DNA from: a virus
Taxonomy: Duplodnaviria > Heunggongvirae > Uroviricota > Caudoviricetes
IMG/VR virus record: IMGVR_UViG_647533158_000004
DNA length: 40,450 bases
Strand: one strand, 5' to 3'
Shown here: positions 1 through 38,924 of the stretch, in pieces
How the letters are laid out: the number at the start of each line of letters is the position of its first letter
How positions within the stretch are numbered: position 1 is the stretch's first letter
The notes under the pieces: generated by a model
The model's input: the letters and a program-made list of their open reading frames with translations, nothing else
Told to the model about the DNA's origin: nothing
Databases searched by the model: none
Position numbers and translations under genes: made by a program

Positions 1-1053
1 TCATAAGAATGCTTTAATCAGTTCTTTTGTGCGCGTGGTTCGTTGTGGTAGCTTGGTTGTTGATGATAAACAACTTGTTACATAGGCTGCATAAGGGCCA
101 TCTTCGTCCTGAATTTCATGGGCATCAGCCATCTCTAAGAGAATCGGAATTACACGGGAAGGATTTACATCAAAGTTTGGGTTAGCCGTGAAACCGAGTT
201 CATTTTCAAGTTCATCACTTCCGGGGAAACCAAATTTTAATGCGGTAATAGCACAAAATAATGAGTGAACAACATACGATTTCATCATAAATGAATTACG
301 TAATTCGGAAAAATCTTCCGCCAATAAATTGAAGAAATAATCAATTCTCTCGTTATAGATATTCTCTAAAGGAAAATCATCATCGTATTTTTTATAAATA
401 GCTTCGGTTGCAGGTGCCGACTTTGAACAAAGCCCTCTATCAATGAGTATTGCCATATCTGAGATAAATTCTGCATCACCCATTCTGGCTAATATTTTGG
501 GTGACAATATATTATAAATCTCTAAAAGCTCAGCGTGGGTATCTGCTTTTTCAACGATATACCACTTAAATGCACCTTGAAAAGTAGCATGCCGTTTTTC
601 TGCTGATGTTAGTGGAGATGTATAAGCATTCATTCGTCTAAACATTTCGAGTAATTCAGCCCTGCTTGCTGAATAAACTGTGGATGTTTCAACTTGATAA
701 CTAATAAAACATCTTTTTGCATCATCGGGCAAATCATTAAAATACATGCCAGAATACTTCTTCGATGCCGAAGTAAGTGCAAATTTGTTTTTATAAAAAT
801 CAACGAGAGTTGTTACTCGTTGCTGGCCATCAACAATTTCTTTAATTGGCCTTTCGTTTGTCCTGTCAAATGCTTGATATAAATATATTTTGGGGAAAGG
901 ATAATTTTCTAGAATAGTGTCTATGAAATAACTCTTTGCAAATGGTGGCCATATTCCATTTCCGCGCTGATAATCCTTGTTAATTATTAGTTCTTTTCTC
1001 TCAAGCATTGAAATTAGATCAATTAATGTGATCTGCCCTACATTTGTATTCAT
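1..1053 (-). CDS. DUF262 (ParB/sulfiredoxin-like, DGQQR motif) protein; accessory gene downstream of int, candidate defence gene
   Basis: 350-aa ORF with N-terminal KDYQRG ... IVDGQQRVTTL motif typical of DUF262 as found in GmrSD/SspE-type proteins; no recognisable HNH/DUF1524 C-terminal domain. AGGAG 7 nt upstream of ATG; AT-rich relative to neighbours. Confidence 0.75.
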   Translation of the reverse strand: MNTNVGQITLIDLISMLERKELIINKDYQRGNGIWPPFAKSYFIDTILENYPFPKIYLYQAFDRTNERPIKEIVDGQQRVTTLVDFYKNKFALTSASKKYSGMYFNDLPDDAKRCFISYQVETSTVYSASRAELLEMFRRMNAYTSPLTSAEKRHATFQGAFKWYIVEKADTHAELLEIYNILSPKILARMGDAEFISDMAILIDRGLCSKSAPATEAIYKKYDDDFPLENIYNERIDYFFNLLAEDFSELRNSFMMKSYVVHSLFCAITALKFGFPGSDELENELGFTANPNFDVNPSRVIPILLEMADAHEIQDEDGPYAAYVTSCLSSTTKLPQRTTRTKELIKAFL

Positions 1054-1084
1054 GACTATTCTCCTGACTATGAAAAGGAGGGTT

Positions 1085-1112
1085 ATTTTACATCAATAAT
1101 AAAATTGTTCAA
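1085..1112 (-). promoter_or_regulatory. Possible sigma70 promoter for the DUF262 gene
   Basis: On minus strand TTGAAC, ~16-nt spacer, TAAAAT in the int-DUF262 intergenic region. Confidence 0.25.
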
Positions 1113-1152
1113 TATTCATAGTTTATAGGGAGTCTTTTGAAGAGGTTCATAG

Positions 1153-2283
1153 TTAAAACTGGTGGATATACATCCAATCTTTTCCCCGATCATCATGATA
1201 ACGATCGGTTTGTTGTTGCGTTTTATGGCCAAGTAGTTTTTGTGTGTCTACCCCCTGTTCTTTGTACAGACGTTCAGATAAAGACCTTTGTTCATGGAAT
1301 GTTGCTGGTGAGCCATTACCCCAGTCAATTTCTGCCAAATCTCTCGCTCTACTAAAATTCGTCGTCAATGTATTGGATTTAACCTGCGCGCCACGTTCAG
1401 CCTGTGAAGTGGTACGAAAAAAATGCACAAGGTATGGGCTGACTGCATAGTCACGGCAGCGGGCGACTACATCGCGTAAACTCCAGTTAATCGCGTTGAG
1501 ACGAAGAGAAAGCGGGATGGCGATTTTGCTCCCGGTTTTTTCCTGGATGACATGGAGATGATCATCCCAAATATCGCTAAATTTCATACGCGAGATATCA
1601 CCTAACCTCTGGCCGGTAACCAGTGCTAACAGCATGGCATTCCCCATATAACGATGACTGGCATCTGCGATATCAAAGATTTTTTGCCATTCTTCAAGAC
1701 TTAACCGTTGTCGGGTAATTTTTCTTCTGGGTTGTTTGGTTGCCTGTGCTGGATTATAGCCCGGAGGGACTTCCCCATAGTGTTGTGCCTCCTTGAATAC
1801 ATCAATTAGAACGGAGCGGACTACTTGCGCCATCCTCGGTTGCCCGGCAGTGATATACTCGTCAAGCAATTGCGCTATATCCCTTACATCAACTGATGAA
1901 ATTAATTTCATTCCTGCTCGTTCCCTGAGCAAGGATACTGGTTTGGCTTTCTGTTTATAGGTGTTGAGCTTTATATCGCCACTTTCCAGTCTGTCATCCT
2001 GGATTGCTTGATAGCGATCTAACCAGGTTGACGTTGTGATTGCTTTTCCTTTGCTGGTTGCGATCCTGTCACTGATAGCCAGAATCTGCCGGGTTCTTTG
2101 CTCAGCCAGGCGTGAATTTGCCTCAGTGGCAATAGCAATGGCTTCAGCTTCGTTTGTGCCTAAAGAATGAAACTTCCCGGTCACTGGATGTTTATATCGC
2201 CAATAGACTTTATTTACTTTTCTACTATAAAGTGGATACAAGTTCGGGACTGAAACATTATTTTTACGTGGTCTGGCTGCCAT
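1153..2283 (-). CDS. int: Tyrosine integrase, lambda Int family
   Basis: 376 aa; N-terminal arm-binding-like region and C-terminal catalytic region (HEQRSLSERLY ... LLGHK ... RYHDDRG) closely resembling lambda Int. Confidence 0.95.
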   Translation of the reverse strand: MAARPRKNNVSVPNLYPLYSRKVNKVYWRYKHPVTGKFHSLGTNEAEAIAIATEANSRLAEQRTRQILAISDRIATSKGKAITTSTWLDRYQAIQDDRLESGDIKLNTYKQKAKPVSLLRERAGMKLISSVDVRDIAQLLDEYITAGQPRMAQVVRSVLIDVFKEAQHYGEVPPGYNPAQATKQPRRKITRQRLSLEEWQKIFDIADASHRYMGNAMLLALVTGQRLGDISRMKFSDIWDDHLHVIQEKTGSKIAIPLSLRLNAINWSLRDVVARCRDYAVSPYLVHFFRTTSQAERGAQVKSNTLTTNFSRARDLAEIDWGNGSPATFHEQRSLSERLYKEQGVDTQKLLGHKTQQQTDRYHDDRGKDWMYIHQF

Positions 2284-5553: not shown

Positions 5554-6444
5554 ATGGAAGACGCGCTTTACGCTTTTAATTACACACAGAACCGGGACAA
5601 GTTATTTGCTAACTTGATTAGCATCATTGATGGAATCATTGCAGATGGAGTTGTCCGTGAAGAGGAGGTTCTTTACTTAGATACATGGTTACTTGAAGCA
5701 AAGCAGATTATCAATAATGGAGTTATAAAAAGTCTATCTGCTCGGGTGTCGGATATTCTTGCGGATGGAATAATCACATCAGAAGAACGTGATGACCTTA
5801 AAAATAGCCTTCTCCAAATACAGAGGGAAATTCTTGATATCCCTGAAATTGATTTTTACTCCAAGGATGTAGATGTCCATTTACTTAATGGACTATGTAA
5901 AGGATTAATTGCTGATCGGAACTTAACTCAAGAAGAAATAAGATATCTTAATTGGTGGCTTGAGCAAAATGGAGCTTTGAAGAACAACTACCCAGGAAAA
6001 AAACTTTATGCACTTGTAAAGGAAATTCTTAAAGATGGTGTTATTACTGAAGATGAGAGTTTAACTCTACATAAGGCATTAGTAGACTTCACAGGATGTG
6101 ACTTGGAAAGTGGGGTGGTGGATGGTTTGGCGACCAGGCTGCCTATTGATGTAGGGGCTTCGATAGAGTTAGAGGGTAAAACCTATTGTCTTACAGGCAC
6201 TTTTGTTGCAGGAAAGAGAGCCGTAGTTGAAAATTTGATTAAAAATGCTGGTGGGAACATCAGTAGTGGAATTACTCAAAAGTTGGATTTTTTAGTAATT
6301 GGGACGCTTTCCTCCCGTGATTGGAAATTCTCTAGTCACGGAAGGAAGATCGAAAAGGCTATATCTTATAGGGATGATAATGGTGCAAAACTTAAAATTA
6401 TTTCTGAAGAAATGCTTTTCGATGCATTACCAAGTTCGCGATGA
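5554..6444 (+). CDS. Accessory protein with four tandem ADG-motif repeats (TerB-like) and a C-terminal BRCT-like domain
   Basis: AGGAGG then ATG at 5554. Four ~35-aa repeats (IIADGVVREEE / ILADGIITSEE / LIADRNLTQEE / ILKDGVITEDE). C-terminus GKTYCLTGTF ... LDFLVIGT ... KIEKA resembles the BRCT domain of NAD-dependent DNA ligase. AT-rich; convergent with cI and overlaps it by 18 bp. Confidence 0.8.
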   Translation: MEDALYAFNYTQNRDKLFANLISIIDGIIADGVVREEEVLYLDTWLLEAKQIINNGVIKSLSARVSDILADGIITSEERDDLKNSLLQIQREILDIPEIDFYSKDVDVHLLNGLCKGLIADRNLTQEEIRYLNWWLEQNGALKNNYPGKKLYALVKEILKDGVITEDESLTLHKALVDFTGCDLESGVVDGLATRLPIDVGASIELEGKTYCLTGTFVAGKRAVVENLIKNAGGNISSGITQKLDFLVIGTLSSRDWKFSSHGRKIEKAISYRDDNGAKLKIISEEMLFDALPSSR

Positions 6445-7113
6445 CCAGAATACCCTACCTATAACATGAATTCTGGCTCGTCTATCTTCAAAGGTGAGTA
6501 TTTCATCTGGGTACTCATCTTTGTTGAAGCTTCTAAGAATCAAGCCACCGTCAGGTAAGTTGATAAGTATTTTAACCCTTAGCAATACACCATCTCGTAC
6601 GGCATAAAGATCGCCATCACGAATAGGAACGGTTTGAGAAATATCAACGGCAACAAGATCTCCATTATTGAGAACCGGTAATAAACTGTTCCCCCATATT
6701 TGTACGATCTTGGCATTAGATGCACATACGCCAGATTTTCTCAAATCTGCTCTTCTTAACGGAAACCAGTCAATAGCTGATTCAACTATTTCAGCCAGAC
6801 ATCCGTTACCTGCCGATAACTCGACATCTAAAACAGGAATGTTTACGAAAATATCGGGGTCTAATGCGGTGCTTTCTGCTTCTTTTACAACAAGATCAGG
6901 TATGGATGCGTTGTCTTCAATACCAAGTTGTAACCACTTTTGTGATACACCTAAAACTTTTGCAATTTCTTTAATTTTGCGCGGTTGTAGAGTTTCGCCA
7001 TTCTCTATTTTGGCTACAGATTGTTGTGAAAGTCCAATTTTTTCAGCTAGTTGAGCTTGGCTCATGCCAGCTTTCTCTCTACCTATCTTTAATCGTTCTG
7101 CCAGTGTTTTCAC
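6427..7113 (-). CDS. cI: CI-type repressor (XRE HTH plus S24 LexA-like peptidase domain)
   Basis: GTG start with GAGGG RBS; N-terminal HTH (SQAQLAEKIGLSQQSVAKIE) and C-terminal S24 autocleavage domain. Confidence 0.9.
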   Translation of the reverse strand: MKTLAERLKIGREKAGMSQAQLAEKIGLSQQSVAKIENGETLQPRKIKEIAKVLGVSQKWLQLGIEDNASIPDLVVKEAESTALDPDIFVNIPVLDVELSAGNGCLAEIVESAIDWFPLRRADLRKSGVCASNAKIVQIWGNSLLPVLNNGDLVAVDISQTVPIRDGDLYAVRDGVLLRVKILINLPDGGLILRSFNKDEYPDEILTFEDRRARIHVIGRVFWSSRTW

Positions 7114-9363: not shown

Positions 9364-9854
9364 TTATGAGTCTTTTGAATGATGTTCAGAAATTCATTGA
9401 AGCCCATCCGGGGTGTACTTCCGGAGACATTGCGGATGCTTTTGCAGGTTACTCACGGCAGCGCGTTCTGCAGTCAGCAAGCAAGTTACGTCAGAGTGGG
9501 CGTGTGGCTCACCGTTGTGAAGGAGATACACGCAGACATTTCCCGCGCCTGACTGAGAGAGCGCAGGAGTCGGAACCACAACCAGTTCGTGAAACCAGAC
9601 CTGTGCGCAATTTCTATGTCGGCACTAACGATCCCCGGGTGATTTTGTGCCTGACCCGCCAGGCGGAAGAACTGGAGTCCAGGGGCTTATACCGTCGTGC
9701 TGCAACGGTGTGGATGGCGGCATTCCGTGAAAGCCACTCCCAGCCAGAACGAAACAATTTTCTGGCGCGTCGTGAGCAGTGTTTACGGAAAAGCAGCAAG
9801 CGCGCTGTATCGGGTGATGAGTGGTATCTGTCAGGGAATTACGTGGGGGCTTAA
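9360..9854 (+). CDS. Hypothetical protein in replication module
   Basis: 164-aa ORF overlapping the stops/starts of both flanking genes; N-terminus looks like a winged helix. Confidence 0.6.
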   Translation: MIMSLLNDVQKFIEAHPGCTSGDIADAFAGYSRQRVLQSASKLRQSGRVAHRCEGDTRRHFPRLTERAQESEPQPVRETRPVRNFYVGTNDPRVILCLTRQAEELESRGLYRRAATVWMAAFRESHSQPERNNFLARREQCLRKSSKRAVSGDEWYLSGNYVGA

Positions 9855-10507
9855 TGAGTAATAAATATTGCCAGGAGCTGGTGGAACTGCGGAACAAACC
9901 AGCCCATGAACTGAAGGAAGTGGGTGATCAGTGGCGCACGCCGGACAACATTTTCTGGGGAATTAACACCCTGTTTGGCCCGTTTGTTCTGGATCTGTTC
10001 ACTGACGGTGATAACGCCAAATGTGCCGCGTATTACACGGCGGAAGACAACGCGCTGGCGCATGACTGGTCAGAACGCCTTGCGGAGCTTAAAGGTGCTG
10101 CCTTTGGTAATCCTCCATACAGCCGCGCCAGTCAGCATGAGGGGCAATACATCACCGGCATGCGTTACATCATGAAACATGCCAGTGCCATGCGTGATAA
10201 GGGCGGGCGCTATGTTTTCCTGATCAAAGCTGCCACCAGCGAAGTGTGGTGGCCGGAAGATGCAGATCATATTGCTTTTATTCGCGGGCGTATTGGTTTT
10301 GAACTGCCTGTCTGGTTTATCCCGAAAGACGAGAAGCAGATACCGACAGGAGCTTTTTTCTCTGGTGCTATTGCTGTTTTTGACAAGACCTGGAAGGGAC
10401 CGGCAATCAGCTACATCGGGCGCGATGAACTTGAGGCATGTGGTGAGGCCTTTCTGGCGCAGGTTCGCCAGCAGGCGGAAAAACTGGTCAGGGAGATGGT
10501 GGCATGA
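9854..10507 (+). CDS. Phage N6-adenine DNA methyltransferase (Dam-like, orphan)
   Basis: FGNPPYS catalytic motif; ATG 9854 overlaps upstream stop (TAATG). Confidence 0.85.
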   Translation: MSNKYCQELVELRNKPAHELKEVGDQWRTPDNIFWGINTLFGPFVLDLFTDGDNAKCAAYYTAEDNALAHDWSERLAELKGAAFGNPPYSRASQHEGQYITGMRYIMKHASAMRDKGGRYVFLIKAATSEVWWPEDADHIAFIRGRIGFELPVWFIPKDEKQIPTGAFFSGAIAVFDKTWKGPAISYIGRDELEACGEAFLAQVRQQAEKLVREMVA

Positions 10508-17490: not shown

Positions 17491-17841
17491 ATGCCACCAC
17501 GAACCCCAAAAGCCTGCCGTGTTCGCGGCTGCCGCCATACCACAACTGACCCGTCAGGCTATTGCGAAAGCCACAAAAGTGAAGGCTGGAAGCAATACAA
17601 GCCGGGCCAGTCCAGACACCAGCGCGGTTATGGTTCGAAATGGGATGTTATCCGTGAACGTGTGCTCAAGCGTGACAAAGGACTGTGTCAGCTATGTCTG
17701 CGTGGTGGTGTGGTACGTGAGGCGAAAACCGTTGACCACATCATCCCTAAAGCGCATGGCGGCACTGATGCCGACAGCAATCTGCAGAGCCTGTGCTGGC
17801 CGTGTCATAAGGCGAAGACGGCCCGTGAACGGTTGAAGTAA
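17491..17841 (+). CDS. HNH endonuclease (terminase-associated)
   Basis: 116 aa; Cys-rich N-terminus and HNH motif (DHIIPKAHGGTD ... NLQSLCWPCH); precedes terminase small subunit as in HK97-like phages. Confidence 0.85.
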   Translation: MPPRTPKACRVRGCRHTTTDPSGYCESHKSEGWKQYKPGQSRHQRGYGSKWDVIRERVLKRDKGLCQLCLRGGVVREAKTVDHIIPKAHGGTDADSNLQSLCWPCHKAKTARERLK

Positions 17842-34813: not shown

Positions 34814-34816
34814 TCC

Positions 34817-35599
34817 ATGCATCGTATAGACACGAAAACCGCGCAGAAGGATAAGTTCGGCGCGGGTAAGAACGGTTTTACCCGTGGTAACCCCCAGACC
34901 GGCACGCCTGCCACCGATCTGGATGATGACTACTTTGACATGTTGCAGGAGGAGCTTTGCAGCGTTGTGGAGGCATCCGGTGCCAGCCTGGAGAAGGGGC
35001 GGCATGACCAGCTGCTTACCGCGCTTCGTGCGCTGCTGTTAAGCCGCAAGAATCCGTTTGGCGATATCAAATCGGATGGCACGGTGAAAACAGCTCTCGA
35101 AAACCTTGGTTTGGGAGAAGGCTCAGCATTACCCGTTGGTGTGCCTGTTCCGTGGCCTTCAGCCACTCCGCCAACAGGCTGGCTGAAATGCAACGGAGCA
35201 GCTTTTTCTGCTGAAGAATACCCGGAACTGGCAAAGGCTTATCCGACAAATAAATTACCTGATTTACGCGGTGAGTTTATTCGTGGCTGGGATGACGGAC
35301 GTGGAGTGGATAACGGAAGGGGATTATTAACGCTTCAGGACGGTGCGATTGTCAGTCATAACCACTATTGGGGAATCTGGACTTCACGAACTAACGACCA
35401 GACTCTGGGAAGTTTTACAGGCACCACGATTTTAAAACAAATCACGCCCCTGTCTCCAGCCATTGACTTCGATAATTACCCAATTCCCAACCCGGCTATT
35501 ACAGAGGGTGGTGTTGTTGCGGCAACGACTAAACCTGCAGGTGCGAATGAAACACGCCCACGAAATGTCGCTTTTAACTATATTGTGAGGGCTGCATAA
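34817..35599 (+). CDS. Tail fibre protein: constant N-terminus fused to currently expressed variable C-terminus
   Basis: 260 aa; crossover site at 35100-35120 separates constant from variable part. Confidence 0.85.
35100..35120 (+). repeat. Left inverted repeat / recombination site of the invertible segment
   Basis: AAAACCTTGGTTTGGGAGAAG; its reverse complement occurs at 36951-36971 with one mismatch. Confidence 0.85.
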
Positions 35600-36201
35600 T
35601 GAATAACGCAGAATTAAACAGTGAATTAATTGCCACTATGGCAGGAGAAATTACTGTTTATAACTTTGACGTCATGAGTCGGGAGTATATTTCAGCTTCA
35701 ACTGAATATCTTGCTGTTGGTGTCGGCATTCCGGCATATTCCTGTTTAGATGCTCCAGGCACCTACAAAGCTGGTTATGCAATCTGCCGCTCTGCAGATT
35801 TTAACTCATGGGAATATGTACCAGACCATCGCGGTGAAATCGTCTATAACACCGAAACGGGAGACGCCAAAGAAATCACAACTCCGGGTGATTACCCCGA
35901 AAAAACAACCACTATCGCCCCGTTAACGCCATACGATAAATGGGATGGTGAGAAATGGGTGACGGATACTGAGACACAGCATAGCGCCGCAGTAGACGCG
36001 GCAGAAGCACAACGTCAGTCACTGATTGATACTGCAATGGCTTCCATTAGTCTGATTCAACTGAAATTGCAGGCCGGGCGGAAGCTGATGCAGGCAGAGA
36101 CCACCCGACTTAACACTGTGCTGGATTACATTGACGCGGTGACGGCAACAGATATCAGCACCGCGCCGGATGTCATCTGGCCTGTACTGCCGGAGGCGTA
36201 G
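35599..36201 (+). CDS. Tail fibre assembly protein (orientation currently coupled to expressed fibre)
   Basis: 200 aa, coupled to the tail fibre gene; C-terminal region resembles that of the oppositely oriented chaperone. Confidence 0.85.
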   Translation: MNNAELNSELIATMAGEITVYNFDVMSREYISASTEYLAVGVGIPAYSCLDAPGTYKAGYAICRSADFNSWEYVPDHRGEIVYNTETGDAKEITTPGDYPEKTTTIAPLTPYDKWDGEKWVTDTETQHSAAVDAAEAQRQSLIDTAMASISLIQLKLQAGRKLMQAETTRLNTVLDYIDAVTATDISTAPDVIWPVLPEA

Positions 36202-36604
36202 GCCATTCAATATCTGGCGCACTGGAAGTATCGACCATTTCCAGTGCGTCCAGGTAATCCAGCCACAAATTATATTGCGCCAGTTCCTCACCTTTCAGAC
36301 GACCAATCGCCGCTTTACCAGGCCATTGTTTGCTGTTCATGTATTCGTTGGCCTGATTAACTAATCGCTGTTTATTTGATTCAGCGATTGAGATTAATTC
36401 TTCGCTGGTAAGTGGTGGCGCATCCTGCCATGCTGGAAAACCATTTTTATCTGAACCAAGTATTTTACCATCAGGCCATGCAACTCCTGCGAACTCAGAA
36501 TAAATAGTAAAGTTTATTTTCGTAGCGTTCTCAGGAATGGTTTGGCTATCTGGTGAAATATAAAATCCCGAATCAGAGGGATTAAAATAATATGTCTTTT
36601 CCAT
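36173..36604 (-). CDS. Alternative tail fibre assembly protein (inverted orientation)
   Basis: 143 aa on minus strand within invertible segment; conserved C-terminal motif (WPTPP). Confidence 0.8.
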   Translation of the reverse strand: MEKTYYFNPSDSGFYISPDSQTIPENATKINFTIYSEFAGVAWPDGKILGSDKNGFPAWQDAPPLTSEELISIAESNKQRLVNQANEYMNSKQWPGKAAIGRLKGEELAQYNLWLDYLDALEMVDTSSAPDIEWPTPPAVQAR

Positions 36605-36606
36605 AG

Positions 36607-36950
36607 TTAATACCCCACAGCCATCCAGTAAATTGAATTTGTTGTAGCAGAAGTGTAAGTAAATCTGATTTTAGTTCTGTTGGTACTTCCAATATCAAAG
36701 CCCACAGAACGGGCAGAAGGATCATTAGTTGAAATAAGAGCGTTTACCGAACGACAAGCAGCAGGGAAAGCTACAGGTAATGTTATATCAACTGTTCCAA
36801 CACTTCCTCCGGTTGGTGAGACAGAAAAACTCCCCCATTGAATAATCATCCCCCCAGGTAATTTCTGGTATCCATTGGCGGTCAATGAGTTACCAAAGCT
36901 GTTCATATCCGGTACCTGATTTTCTCCTGTCCCCACATTCCTCTTTGCCG
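36607..36950 (-). CDS. Alternative tail fibre variable C-terminal segment (expressed only after inversion)
   Basis: Minus-strand frame begins at the right inverted repeat, encoding GLGE in the same frame as the constant fibre part; lacks its own N-terminus. Confidence 0.7.
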
Positions 36951-36971
36951 CTTCTCCCAAACCAACGTTTA
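36951..36971 (-). repeat. Right inverted repeat / recombination site
   Basis: CTTCTCCCAAACCAACGTTTT, reverse complement of the left site. Confidence 0.85.
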
Positions 36972-37031
36972 TGAAAATGCAGAAATAACGAGCAAATGGC
37001 ATCATTCCTGCTTTTGTCAGGGAGATCTACC

Positions 37032-37586
37032 ATGCTTATTGGCTATGTACGTGTGTCAACAAATGACCAGAACACAGATCTACAACGTAATGCGCTGAAC
37101 TGTGCAGGATGCGAGCTGATTTTTGAAGACAAGATAAGCGGTACAAAGTCCGAAAGGCCGGGACTGAAAAAACTGCTCAGGACATTATCGGCAGGTGATA
37201 CGCTGGTGGTCTGGAAACTGGACCGACTGGGGCGCAGTATGCGGCATCTTGTCGTGCTGGTGGAGGAGTTGCGCGAACGAGGCATCAACTTTCGTAGTCT
37301 GACGGATTCAATTGATACCAGTACCCCAATGGGGCGCTTTTTCTTTCATGTGATGGGTGCCCTGGCTGAAATGGAGCGTGAACTGATTGTTGAAAGAACA
37401 AAAGCTGGACTGGAAGCTGCTCGCGCACAGGGACGAATTGGTGGACGTCGTCCCAAACTTACACCAGAACAATGGGAACAGGCCGGACGATTAATTGCAT
37501 CAGGAGTTCCTCGCCAGAAGGTGGCGATTATCTATGATGTTGGTGTGTCAACTTTGTATAAGAGGTTTCCTGCAGGGGATAAATAA
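37032..37586 (+). CDS. pin: Serine DNA invertase (Pin/Gin/Hin family)
   Basis: GGGAG then ATG at 37032; 184 aa with catalytic serine context (MLIGYVRVSTNDQ) and C-terminal HTH. Confidence 0.9.
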   Translation: MLIGYVRVSTNDQNTDLQRNALNCAGCELIFEDKISGTKSERPGLKKLLRTLSAGDTLVVWKLDRLGRSMRHLVVLVEELRERGINFRSLTDSIDTSTPMGRFFFHVMGALAEMERELIVERTKAGLEAARAQGRIGGRRPKLTPEQWEQAGRLIASGVPRQKVAIIYDVGVSTLYKRFPAGDK

Positions 37587-37692
37587 AGTTAAAGACACTT
37601 TGTGTACAAAAGAAAGTAAAACAACAGCAACTTGTTGCAATTTTATCAATAAAAGTAGTATTGTCGTGAAAAATTGATTAAAGATTAATATT

Positions 37693-38526
37693 ATGCATGT
37701 TTTTGATAATAATGGAATTGAACTGAAAGCTGAGTGTTCGATAGGTGAAGAGGATGGTGTTTATGGTCTAATCCTTGAGTCGTGGGGGCCGGGTGACAGA
37801 AACAAAGATTACAATATCGCTCTTGATTATATCATTGAACGGTTGGTTGATTCTGGTGTATCCCAAGTCGTAGTATATCTGGCGTCATCATCAGTCAGAA
37901 AACATATGCATTCTTTGGATGAAAGAAAAATCCATCCTGGTGAATATTTTACTTTGATTGGTAATAGCCCCCGCGATATACGCTTGAAGATGTGTGGTTA
38001 TCAGGCTTATTTTAGTCGTACGGGGAGAAAGGAAATTCCTTCCGGCAATAGAACGAAACGAATATTGATAAATGTTCCAGGTATTTATAGTGACAGTTTT
38101 TGGGCGTCTATAATACGTGGAGAACTATCAGAGCTTTCACAGCCTACAGATGATGAATCGCTTCTGAATATGAGGGTTAGTAAATTAATTAAGAAAACGT
38201 TGAGTCAACCCGAGGGCTCTAGGAAACCAGTTGAGGTAGAAAGACTACAAAAAGTTTATGTCCGAGACCCGATGGTAAAAGCTTGGATTTTACAGCAAAG
38301 TAAAGGTATATGTGAAAACTGTGGTAAAAATGCTCCGTTTTATTTAAATGATGGAAACCCATATTTGGAAGTGCATCATGTAATTCCCCTGTCTTCAGGT
38401 GGTGCTGATACAACAGATAACTGTGTTGCCCTTTGTCCGAATTGCCATAGAGAATTGCACTATAGTAAAAATGCAAAAGAACTAATCGAGATGCTTTACG
38501 TTAATATAAACCGATTACAGAAATAA
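37693..38526 (+). CDS. mcrA: HNH-type restriction endonuclease McrA
   Basis: 277 aa; C-terminal HNH motif (CENCG ... HHVIPLSSGG ... CPNCH); length, pin-adjacent position and remembered sequence match e14 McrA. Confidence 0.85.
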   Translation: MHVFDNNGIELKAECSIGEEDGVYGLILESWGPGDRNKDYNIALDYIIERLVDSGVSQVVVYLASSSVRKHMHSLDERKIHPGEYFTLIGNSPRDIRLKMCGYQAYFSRTGRKEIPSGNRTKRILINVPGIYSDSFWASIIRGELSELSQPTDDESLLNMRVSKLIKKTLSQPEGSRKPVEVERLQKVYVRDPMVKAWILQQSKGICENCGKNAPFYLNDGNPYLEVHHVIPLSSGGADTTDNCVALCPNCHRELHYSKNAKELIEMLYVNINRLQK

Positions 38527-38759
38527 AATTATTTATTAAAGTCACATTTAAGACGTAATACCCTACAGGGTAAAATTTTTCTCTGATCTTAACTTCTGCA
38601 AATGTTAACTGCTATTTTTATGCTAAAAATGGTTATCAAAACTCAAAAACACATGTTTATAATCAATGAGTTATAGAAATGCTAAGGGCTAATGAGTTAT
38701 ATGCAAATTAGTAAAATTATGTTGCTATGTCAAATAGTTACGATTTAGTCATCTAACTA

Positions 38760-38924
38760 ATGTTACGCCATATGGGCTGGACTGAAGCCGCAGACCTGAT
38801 TGTTAAAGGTATGGAAGGCGCAATCAATGCGAAGACCGTAACCTATGACTTCGAGCGTCTGATGGAAGGCGCTAAACTGCTGAAATGTTCAGAATTTGGT
38901 GATGCGATCATCAAGAACATGTAA
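38760..38924 (+). pseudogene. icdC: Displaced 3' fragment of isocitrate dehydrogenase gene (icdC-like) marking the prophage right junction
   Basis: Encodes [51 protein letters not shown], the Icd C-terminus, with no upstream icd body. Confidence 0.8.

Follow-up and report, generated by a model that had tools for sequence, protein, structure and literature searches.

The DUF262 gene at the left end of the window is the first gene of a two-gene operon. This operon represents a diverged form of the already known DUF262+HEPN defence architecture and resides in a prophage defence hotspot. The window is the whole stretch of DNA analysed here, 40,450 nucleotides from the IMG/VR virus record IMGVR_UViG_647533158_000004. 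Its leftmost gene, here called gene A, encodes a DUF262/ParB-like protein of 350 aa. The second gene, gene B, lies just to the left of the window and encodes a protein of 216 aa with a predicted HEPN fold. It is probable that the pair constitutes a self-contained anti-phage cassette, carried as moron cargo, in which a sensor is combined with a HEPN RNase effector. The preliminary description, made from the window only, had presented gene A as a standalone DUF262 protein, with the caveat that a partner further left was possible. The caveat was justified, as the leftward extension of the sequence revealed gene B. The word standalone has to be withdrawn, because in every identical locus only 8 nt separate the end of gene A from the start of gene B. 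Gene B, located just outside the window, would supply the "missing" effector, and the locus is placed in the PD-T4-2 architecture, not in a new standalone class. The coordinates of the features are collected in Table 1.

Table 1. Features of the cassette and of the prophage that carries it. Positions are those of the window unless another locus is named; negative positions are to the left of it.
Feature	Position	Strand	Remarks
Gene B (216-aa HEPN-fold protein, predicted RNase effector)	-8..-658 = L001 7992..7342	-	Off window
Gene A (DUF262/ParB-like, NTPase-type, helical C-terminal domain, predicted sensor/regulator)	1..1053	-	ORF, 350 aa
Gene A stop codon	1..3	-	Operon junction with gene B
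C-terminal all-helical domain of gene A, ~aa 159-350	4..579	-	Without Pfam match, without nuclease motif
DUF262 (ParB/Srx-fold) domain of gene A, aa 15-158	580..1011	-	Pfam envelope
DUF262 motif II of gene A, aa 75-79	817..831
Intergenic region 5' of gene A	1054..1152	-	99 bp
AGGAG Shine-Dalgarno sequence of gene A	1061..1065	-	7 nt before ATG
Promoter-like sequence	1112..1085	-	TTGAAC (1112..1107) and TAAAAT (1090..1085), spacer 16; 9/12 consensus positions
intE, lambda-type integrase	1153..2283	-	Right boundary of variable slot; Pfam Arm-DNA-bind_1 7.3e-37, Phage_integrase 4.4e-18; RefSeq annotation
BRCT domain protein gene	5554..6444		Annotated
XRE-family regulator gene	6427..7113		Prophage immunity region
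Phage N-6-adenine methyltransferase	9854..10507
HNH endonuclease	17491..17841		Just upstream of terminase small subunit
Tail-fibre region	34816..37575
pinE	37021..37575		Right end of prophage
mcrA, 5-methylcytosine-specific endonuclease	37682..38515		Right end of prophage
Displaced icd 3' fragment	38747..38914		Marks attR

Gene A starts with ATG, and the window begins at its stop codon, as had been described. It is full length, not a fragment of a larger disrupted gene, since hundreds of homologues of 347–350 aa align over 100% of it. Many homologues of this length are present among the 927 found in a search of 5.8 billion proteins. With a GC content of 35.6%, gene A is poorer in GC than intE (45%) and the window as a whole (49.5%), in agreement with the AT richness reported for it earlier. 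The candidate promoter attributed to gene A is indeed present as a sequence, but it carries little weight; in a scan, promoter-like matches were no commoner than in shuffled sequence (7 found versus 9.4 expected). The scan of the stretch from intE to gene A revealed nothing that resembles a terminator.

The DUF262 fold, proposed at first from the DGQQR signature, was recognized by profile search. Pfam GmrSD_N/DUF262 (PF03235) matches aa 15–158 of gene A with E = 6.7e-20 and a score of 72.5 bits, above the cutoff of 33.2, and there is no second Pfam domain in the protein. The DUF262 motifs are defined as QR..W, DGxQR, and FxxxN (PMC12065111). They correspond to Q29 R30 ... W35 (motif I), D75 G76 Q77 Q78 R79 (motif II), and F138 ... 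N142 (motif III) in gene A, and all of these residues are invariant in an alignment of 47 gene A sequences. In the AlphaFold model of gene A (pLDDT 88), the N-domain is alpha/beta, and the C-terminal half contains helices only (pLDDT 90–98). In the fold search, the best matches among solved structures were BrxU, SspE, ParB-like PadC, KorB, DndI, and sulfiredoxin. The CTPase folds of ParB, KorB, and Noc were also among the matches. The gene A family profile had no match among the PDB sequences.

The C-terminal helical domain of gene A is probably the counterpart of the "ParBDB" DNA-binding domain, known as NsnA-C, GmrSD-M, or SspE-M. The DUF1524/HNH nuclease domain of the GmrSD or SspE type, already reported as missing, was found neither by Pfam or PADLOC nor in the predicted structure. 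The best PADLOC match of gene A was NsnA (8.5e-32; aa 7–255; model positions 50–281 of 385). PD-T4-2_A gave a weaker match, restricted to the N-domain (9.5e-14; model positions 42–220 of 363). Pfam, PADLOC, and NCBIfam searches with the C-terminal half of gene A, and likewise with gene B, were uninformative.

Gene B is 651 bp in length and is encoded on the same strand as gene A. Its GAGG Shine-Dalgarno sequence overlaps the stop codon of gene A, and the next gene is icd. Of 5426 complete E. coli genomes, 9 contain the first 2.3 kb of the window without any difference, and so does the phage record ON470584. The arrangement of gene A and gene B is the same in all nine of these loci and in the phage record.

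The predicted structure of gene B is a helical bundle of the HEPN type, and its nearest solved folds are the HEPN toxins of HEPN-MNT toxin-antitoxin systems. The protein contains the motif R152-N-A-C-A-H157, in which R, N, A, and H are fully conserved across the alignment of gene B. There was no match of gene B to Pfam or PADLOC models, including PD-T4-2_B, even at E ≤ 10, and the family profile of gene B had no match among the PDB sequences. When the gene B family was compared with RiboL-PSP-type partners by hhalign, the aligned part was a 14-column Rx4H stretch only (E = 0.087). Because the sequence evidence is limited to this stretch, the HEPN assignment rests on the predicted fold, the motif, and the synteny. 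For the same reason, we do not assign the gene B family to Pfam HEPN_RiboL-PSP at the sequence level. The family is composed of standalone proteins of ~215 aa; 38 clusters were found by a word-indexed search, while an exhaustive profile search, with clustering at 50% identity, gave 726, of which 272 had E ≤ 1e-10. We take gene B as a HEPN-fold protein with an invariant Rx4H motif and as the likely RNase effector. The strict conservation of Rx4H argues for a catalytically active gene B.

The association of the two genes is observed far beyond E. coli. The synteny scan used one genome per species, and at least 80 loci with DUF262 relatives, mostly distant, were among the matches listed. In these loci, from many phyla, a DUF262 ORF of ~330–415 aa is followed nearly always by an ORF of ~170–245 aa. 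With few exceptions among the loci listed, the gap between the two lies in the range from -40 to +14 nt, and the downstream ORFs have an RxxxxH motif, mostly RNxxxH, at around residue 125–185. A DUF262 protein of ~350 aa with an ORF of 170–245 aa a few nucleotides on is seen in at least ~45 loci from many phyla.

In 19 loci, the downstream ORF was matched by the gene B profile without iteration. Three rounds of iteration raised this to 44 of 50 ORFs, with E-values that are relative to a small, position-selected ORF set. In an alignment of 46 downstream ORFs with a mean identity of 18%, the invariant columns are only those of R152 and H157. Some of the aligned ORFs match HEPN domains in Pfam: seven match HEPN_RiboL-PSP (best 2.4e-17), three HEPN_MAE_28990, and three HEPN_Apea. 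These matches come from the syntenic partners more distant from gene B, and the ten closer partners were all below the Pfam thresholds. The PD-T4-2_B model reached 0.0067 with one of the 46 syntenic partners and with none of the others. The two proteins diverge together. The pairwise identities of A and B in 41 loci are correlated with r = 0.84, and none of 2000 permutations in a Mantel test was as high. The mean identity in these loci is 17% for B and 30% for A, indicating that B is the faster-evolving one.

Mobility of the pair is observed on chromosome 2 of V. cholerae (L089 5795..7826). A DUF262 gene 55% identical to gene A and a 216-aa HEPN partner form one cassette of the superintegron. 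This cassette is bounded by 125-nt VCR (attC) repeats with a spacing of 1907 nt and contains the two genes alone. Since the pair alone fills one integron cassette, it is a complete mobile unit. GrwAB and TgvAB of V. cholerae, and the systems in the integron "biobank" preprint, were considered and are different systems from the gene A–B pair.

The partner gene is easily overlooked in annotation. In P. protegens (L092 7047..7773), no gene is called for the partner, although its reading frame is uninterrupted and the family profile matches it at 5e-70. This pair adjoins a phage tail/lysis cluster. In Klebsiella quasipneumoniae (L091 7037..7711), the annotated partner is shortened to 175 aa, whereas the intact frame gives a profile match at 2e-96. 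The second gene of PD-T4-2 is likewise listed with "No ID" (Vassallo et al. 2022). Partners left uncalled or shortened by gene callers explain why DUF262 genes of this type look standalone.

The host element of the cassette is an e14-like prophage of the Mu-tail type integrated in icd, and the cassette is at its left (icd/attL) end. In blastn against K-12, the homology to e14 ends at L001 7319, ~100 bp past icd, and resumes at L001 9173 (window 1173), within the 3' end of intE. The two-gene cassette of 1.85 kb stands there in place of 3.2 kb of e14 with C0293, ymfD, ymfE, and lit. Gene A had been placed in the slot between the integrase and the left attachment site, where e14 carries Lit. This location is correct; the e14 of K-12 has ymfD-ymfE-lit in the slot (K-12 is among the slot loci L083 1855..4494, L084 2371..4457, L085 1844..4218, and L082 2368..5089). 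Lit is a protease that cleaves EF-Tu, and lit is an abortive-infection gene against T4. It occupies the same icd–intE position as gene A–B, but the proteins are unrelated.

Other e14-like prophages carry different cargo in this slot. The cargo is PtuA (2e-239) with PDC-M01B, a Septu-like pair, in one of them, an ATPase with a PD-Lambda-5_B methyltransferase (1e-108) in another, and an AriA/PD-T4-4_A-like ATPase with a 188-aa hypothetical protein without PADLOC match in a third. An intE of this type is present in ~500 of 5426 E. coli genomes, but the DUF262 cassette in only 9. The icd–intE slot of e14-like prophages is a defence hotspot, a site where cargo is swapped. A plausible defence gene in an integrase-adjacent slot, as first described, stands in both its location and its plausibility, with the standalone headline given up.

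Several other features of the prophage were observed. It has genes for a contractile tail like that of Mu and P2, whereas the e14 of K-12 is a remnant without them. The tail-fibre region contains a shortened stfP pseudogene, and opposed tail-fibre/assembly genes adjoin the pinE invertase; this organization is consistent with an invertible host-range segment. In the immunity region, the BRCT gene is an unusual cargo, convergent with the XRE-family gene and slightly overlapping it. Nucleic-acid-targeting defence genes are found at both ends of the prophage, the predicted DUF262–HEPN pair by attL and McrA by attR.

The closest known system in organization is PD-T4-2 from E. coli ECOR65, a DUF262 + HEPN system of 1540 bp (QOYX01000002 338334-339873; protein RCO39066.1) (Vassallo et al. 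2022). The cloned system gives protection against T4, and the native strain becomes more sensitive when PD-T4-2 is deleted; its B protein was related to HEPN_RiboL-PSP by HHpred with 97.8% (Vassallo et al. 2022). We compared gene A and gene B with PD-T4-2 through the PADLOC models and the proxy loci L070, L075, and L080. Like gene A–B, PD-T4-2 is a two-gene operon in which a DUF262 gene for ~340–350 aa precedes a small HEPN gene with Rx4H. Both are without DUF1524, ATPase, and methylase, and both are from E. coli accessory DNA.

The two differ in sequence and size. PD-T4-2 B is ~165–170 aa, as estimated from the 1540-bp system and the HHpred ranges, whereas gene B is 216 aa. The PD-T4-2_A model matches the A proteins of L070, L075, and L080 end to end (1e-43 to 1e-45), whereas only the N-domain of gene A is matched. 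Gene A is 28% identical to the A protein of L080, over the N-domain alone. In L070 and L080, the B protein is a bona fide member of RiboL-PSP-HEPN. Gene B matches neither PD-T4-2_B nor Pfam HEPN_RiboL-PSP, and its family aligns with these proteins at the catalytic motif only. Judged from their sequences, L070, L075, and L080 look like PD-T4-2 proper, and gene A–B, whose component B is unmatched in PADLOC, appears to fall outside PD-T4-2 in the narrow sense. It has the DUF262 + HEPN two-gene architecture of the PD-T4-2-like class, with no other conserved component.

Gene A has the same architecture as NsnA of Menshen (NsnABC), a ParB-DUF262 domain followed by a helical "ParBDB" domain (PMC12065111), and a sensor role of gene A is proposed by analogy with NsnA. 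However, the locus of gene A has neither the NsnB ABC-ATPase nor the NsnC inPIN-nuclease, and its neighbours are the HEPN gene, icd, and intE. The effector of Menshen is a BECR or other NsnC-type nuclease, instead of the HEPN protein predicted here. As NsnB and NsnC are absent, the locus is not a Menshen system.

HEPN genes "in operon with ParB" have been predicted as conflict systems (Anantharaman et al. 2013; PMC3710099). The families in that study, RiboL-PSP-HEPN and MAE_28990, are exactly those matched by the distant syntenic partners here, but the gene B family with its 726 clusters is not covered by those Pfam models. The P2-like phage P24B2 (NC_049387 30104..31979 = L087 140..2015) has in its variable region a 381-aa DUF262 gene followed by a 239-aa gene, adjacent to a DNA methyltransferase. 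In PADLOC, the 381-aa protein matches NsnA (4.9e-55) and PD-T4-2_A (9.2e-35). This Peduovirus was rejected as a bridge, as the 239-aa partner matches neither HEPN profiles nor PADLOC; the pair could represent a further DUF262 module whose effector differs. DARNA was also rejected as a relative, being a single-protein HEPN system.

In the favoured scheme, gene A would be a likely sensor that binds nucleotide through its ParB/DUF262 fold, with a helical domain that probably binds DNA. It would recognize incoming phage DNA, possibly modified DNA, and the binding or hydrolysis of NTP would serve as the switch. Gene B, released or activated by gene A, would then cleave RNA (tRNA, mRNA, or rRNA), and this cleavage would stop phage growth, probably via abortive infection or growth arrest. 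What is proposed here on the function in defence, on the roles of sensor and effector, on the trigger, and on the RNA that is cleaved is inferred from the analogy to GmrSD, BrxU, SspE, and NsnA, and to HEPN RNases in general. The scheme has to be an analogy, since no mechanistic study of PD-T4-2 was found in the literature searched.

A different function could be considered for the pair. It might be an addiction module similar to toxin-antitoxin systems, in which the HEPN toxin is checked by the DUF262 protein and which mainly stabilizes the prophage or the integron cassette with no role in phage defence. The similarity of gene B to the HEPN toxins of HEPN-MNT systems, the tight coupling with an 8-nt gap, and the presence of the pair in the superintegron of V. 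cholerae, where toxin-antitoxin cassettes abound, all suit such a module. We nevertheless regard it as unlikely. The gene order and sizes fit the validated PD-T4-2, not HEPN-MNT, and gene A, a 350-aa NTPase-type protein with the full set of catalytic motifs, is unlike a simple antitoxin. The slot otherwise holds defence systems. Moreover, toxin-antitoxin behaviour and abortive-infection defence are compatible with each other.

Alternatively, gene A itself could be the effector, a ParB-like nuclease or a GmrS-like enzyme against phage DNA, perhaps modified, with the HEPN protein as an accessory or a second effector. ParB-fold domains are among the endoDNase domains of restriction-modification-like systems (PMC3710099), and the best fold matches of gene A include the type IV restriction enzymes BrxU and SspE. 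The mcrA gene shows that modification-dependent restriction exists at the opposite end of the same element. However, GmrSD, BrxU, and SspE are proteins of 560–770 aa with a C-terminal DUF1524 His-Me nuclease, against 350 aa in gene A. Cleavage is assigned to this DUF1524 domain, and DUF262 acts as NTPase/sensor (PMC12065111). As DUF1524 is absent, gene A is not a member of GmrSD, and the effector here is modelled as a separate RNase-type protein. The strictly conserved Rx4H of the partner also speaks for an active gene B, and cleavage by gene A is improbable.

A DUF262 defence protein that works without a partner is suggested by the window, where no partner is visible, and the frequency with which gene callers miss the partner may seem to agree with it; it is very improbable, as all identical loci have the partner 8 nt downstream, almost every homologous locus examined has one too, and the partner co-diverges with gene A. 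A role in partition or regulation of the prophage, as a ParB-like protein outside any conflict, recalls the ParB/KorB/Noc fold matches of gene A but is scarcely credible for an integrated element, for a protein that is without ParA and an HTH domain, is paired with a HEPN protein, is encoded by AT-rich cargo in a variable slot, and has its closest profiles among defence proteins.

Within the defence reading, the pair may found a distinct, widespread family, in which a ParB-like NTP switch would respond to some feature of phage DNA by licensing a separate HEPN RNase; this is possible, but we hold it as doubtful. The feature read by gene A could be a base modification, complementing McrA at the other end of the prophage.

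The gene A–B pair is a reasonable experimental target, although it is not very surprising to specialists. If active, it would add a second lineage, distinct in sequence, to the DUF262+HEPN architecture, of which PD-T4-2 is the sole one tested so far. It is a further entry in the cargo hotspot between icd and intE of e14-like prophages. As a compact E. coli cassette of 1.85 kb, it offers a handle on the control of an RNase by a ParB-fold NTPase. The family of the HEPN partner has no Pfam or PADLOC model and is often uncalled, so DUF262 genes look standalone and censuses undercount such pairs. If the reading as a distinct family is true, the family would extend over Proteobacteria, Firmicutes, Chloroflexota, Bacteroidota, and others, unseen by models of the PADLOC type. 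It would then represent abortive infection that senses DNA and cleaves RNA, which is not yet described for DUF262 systems.
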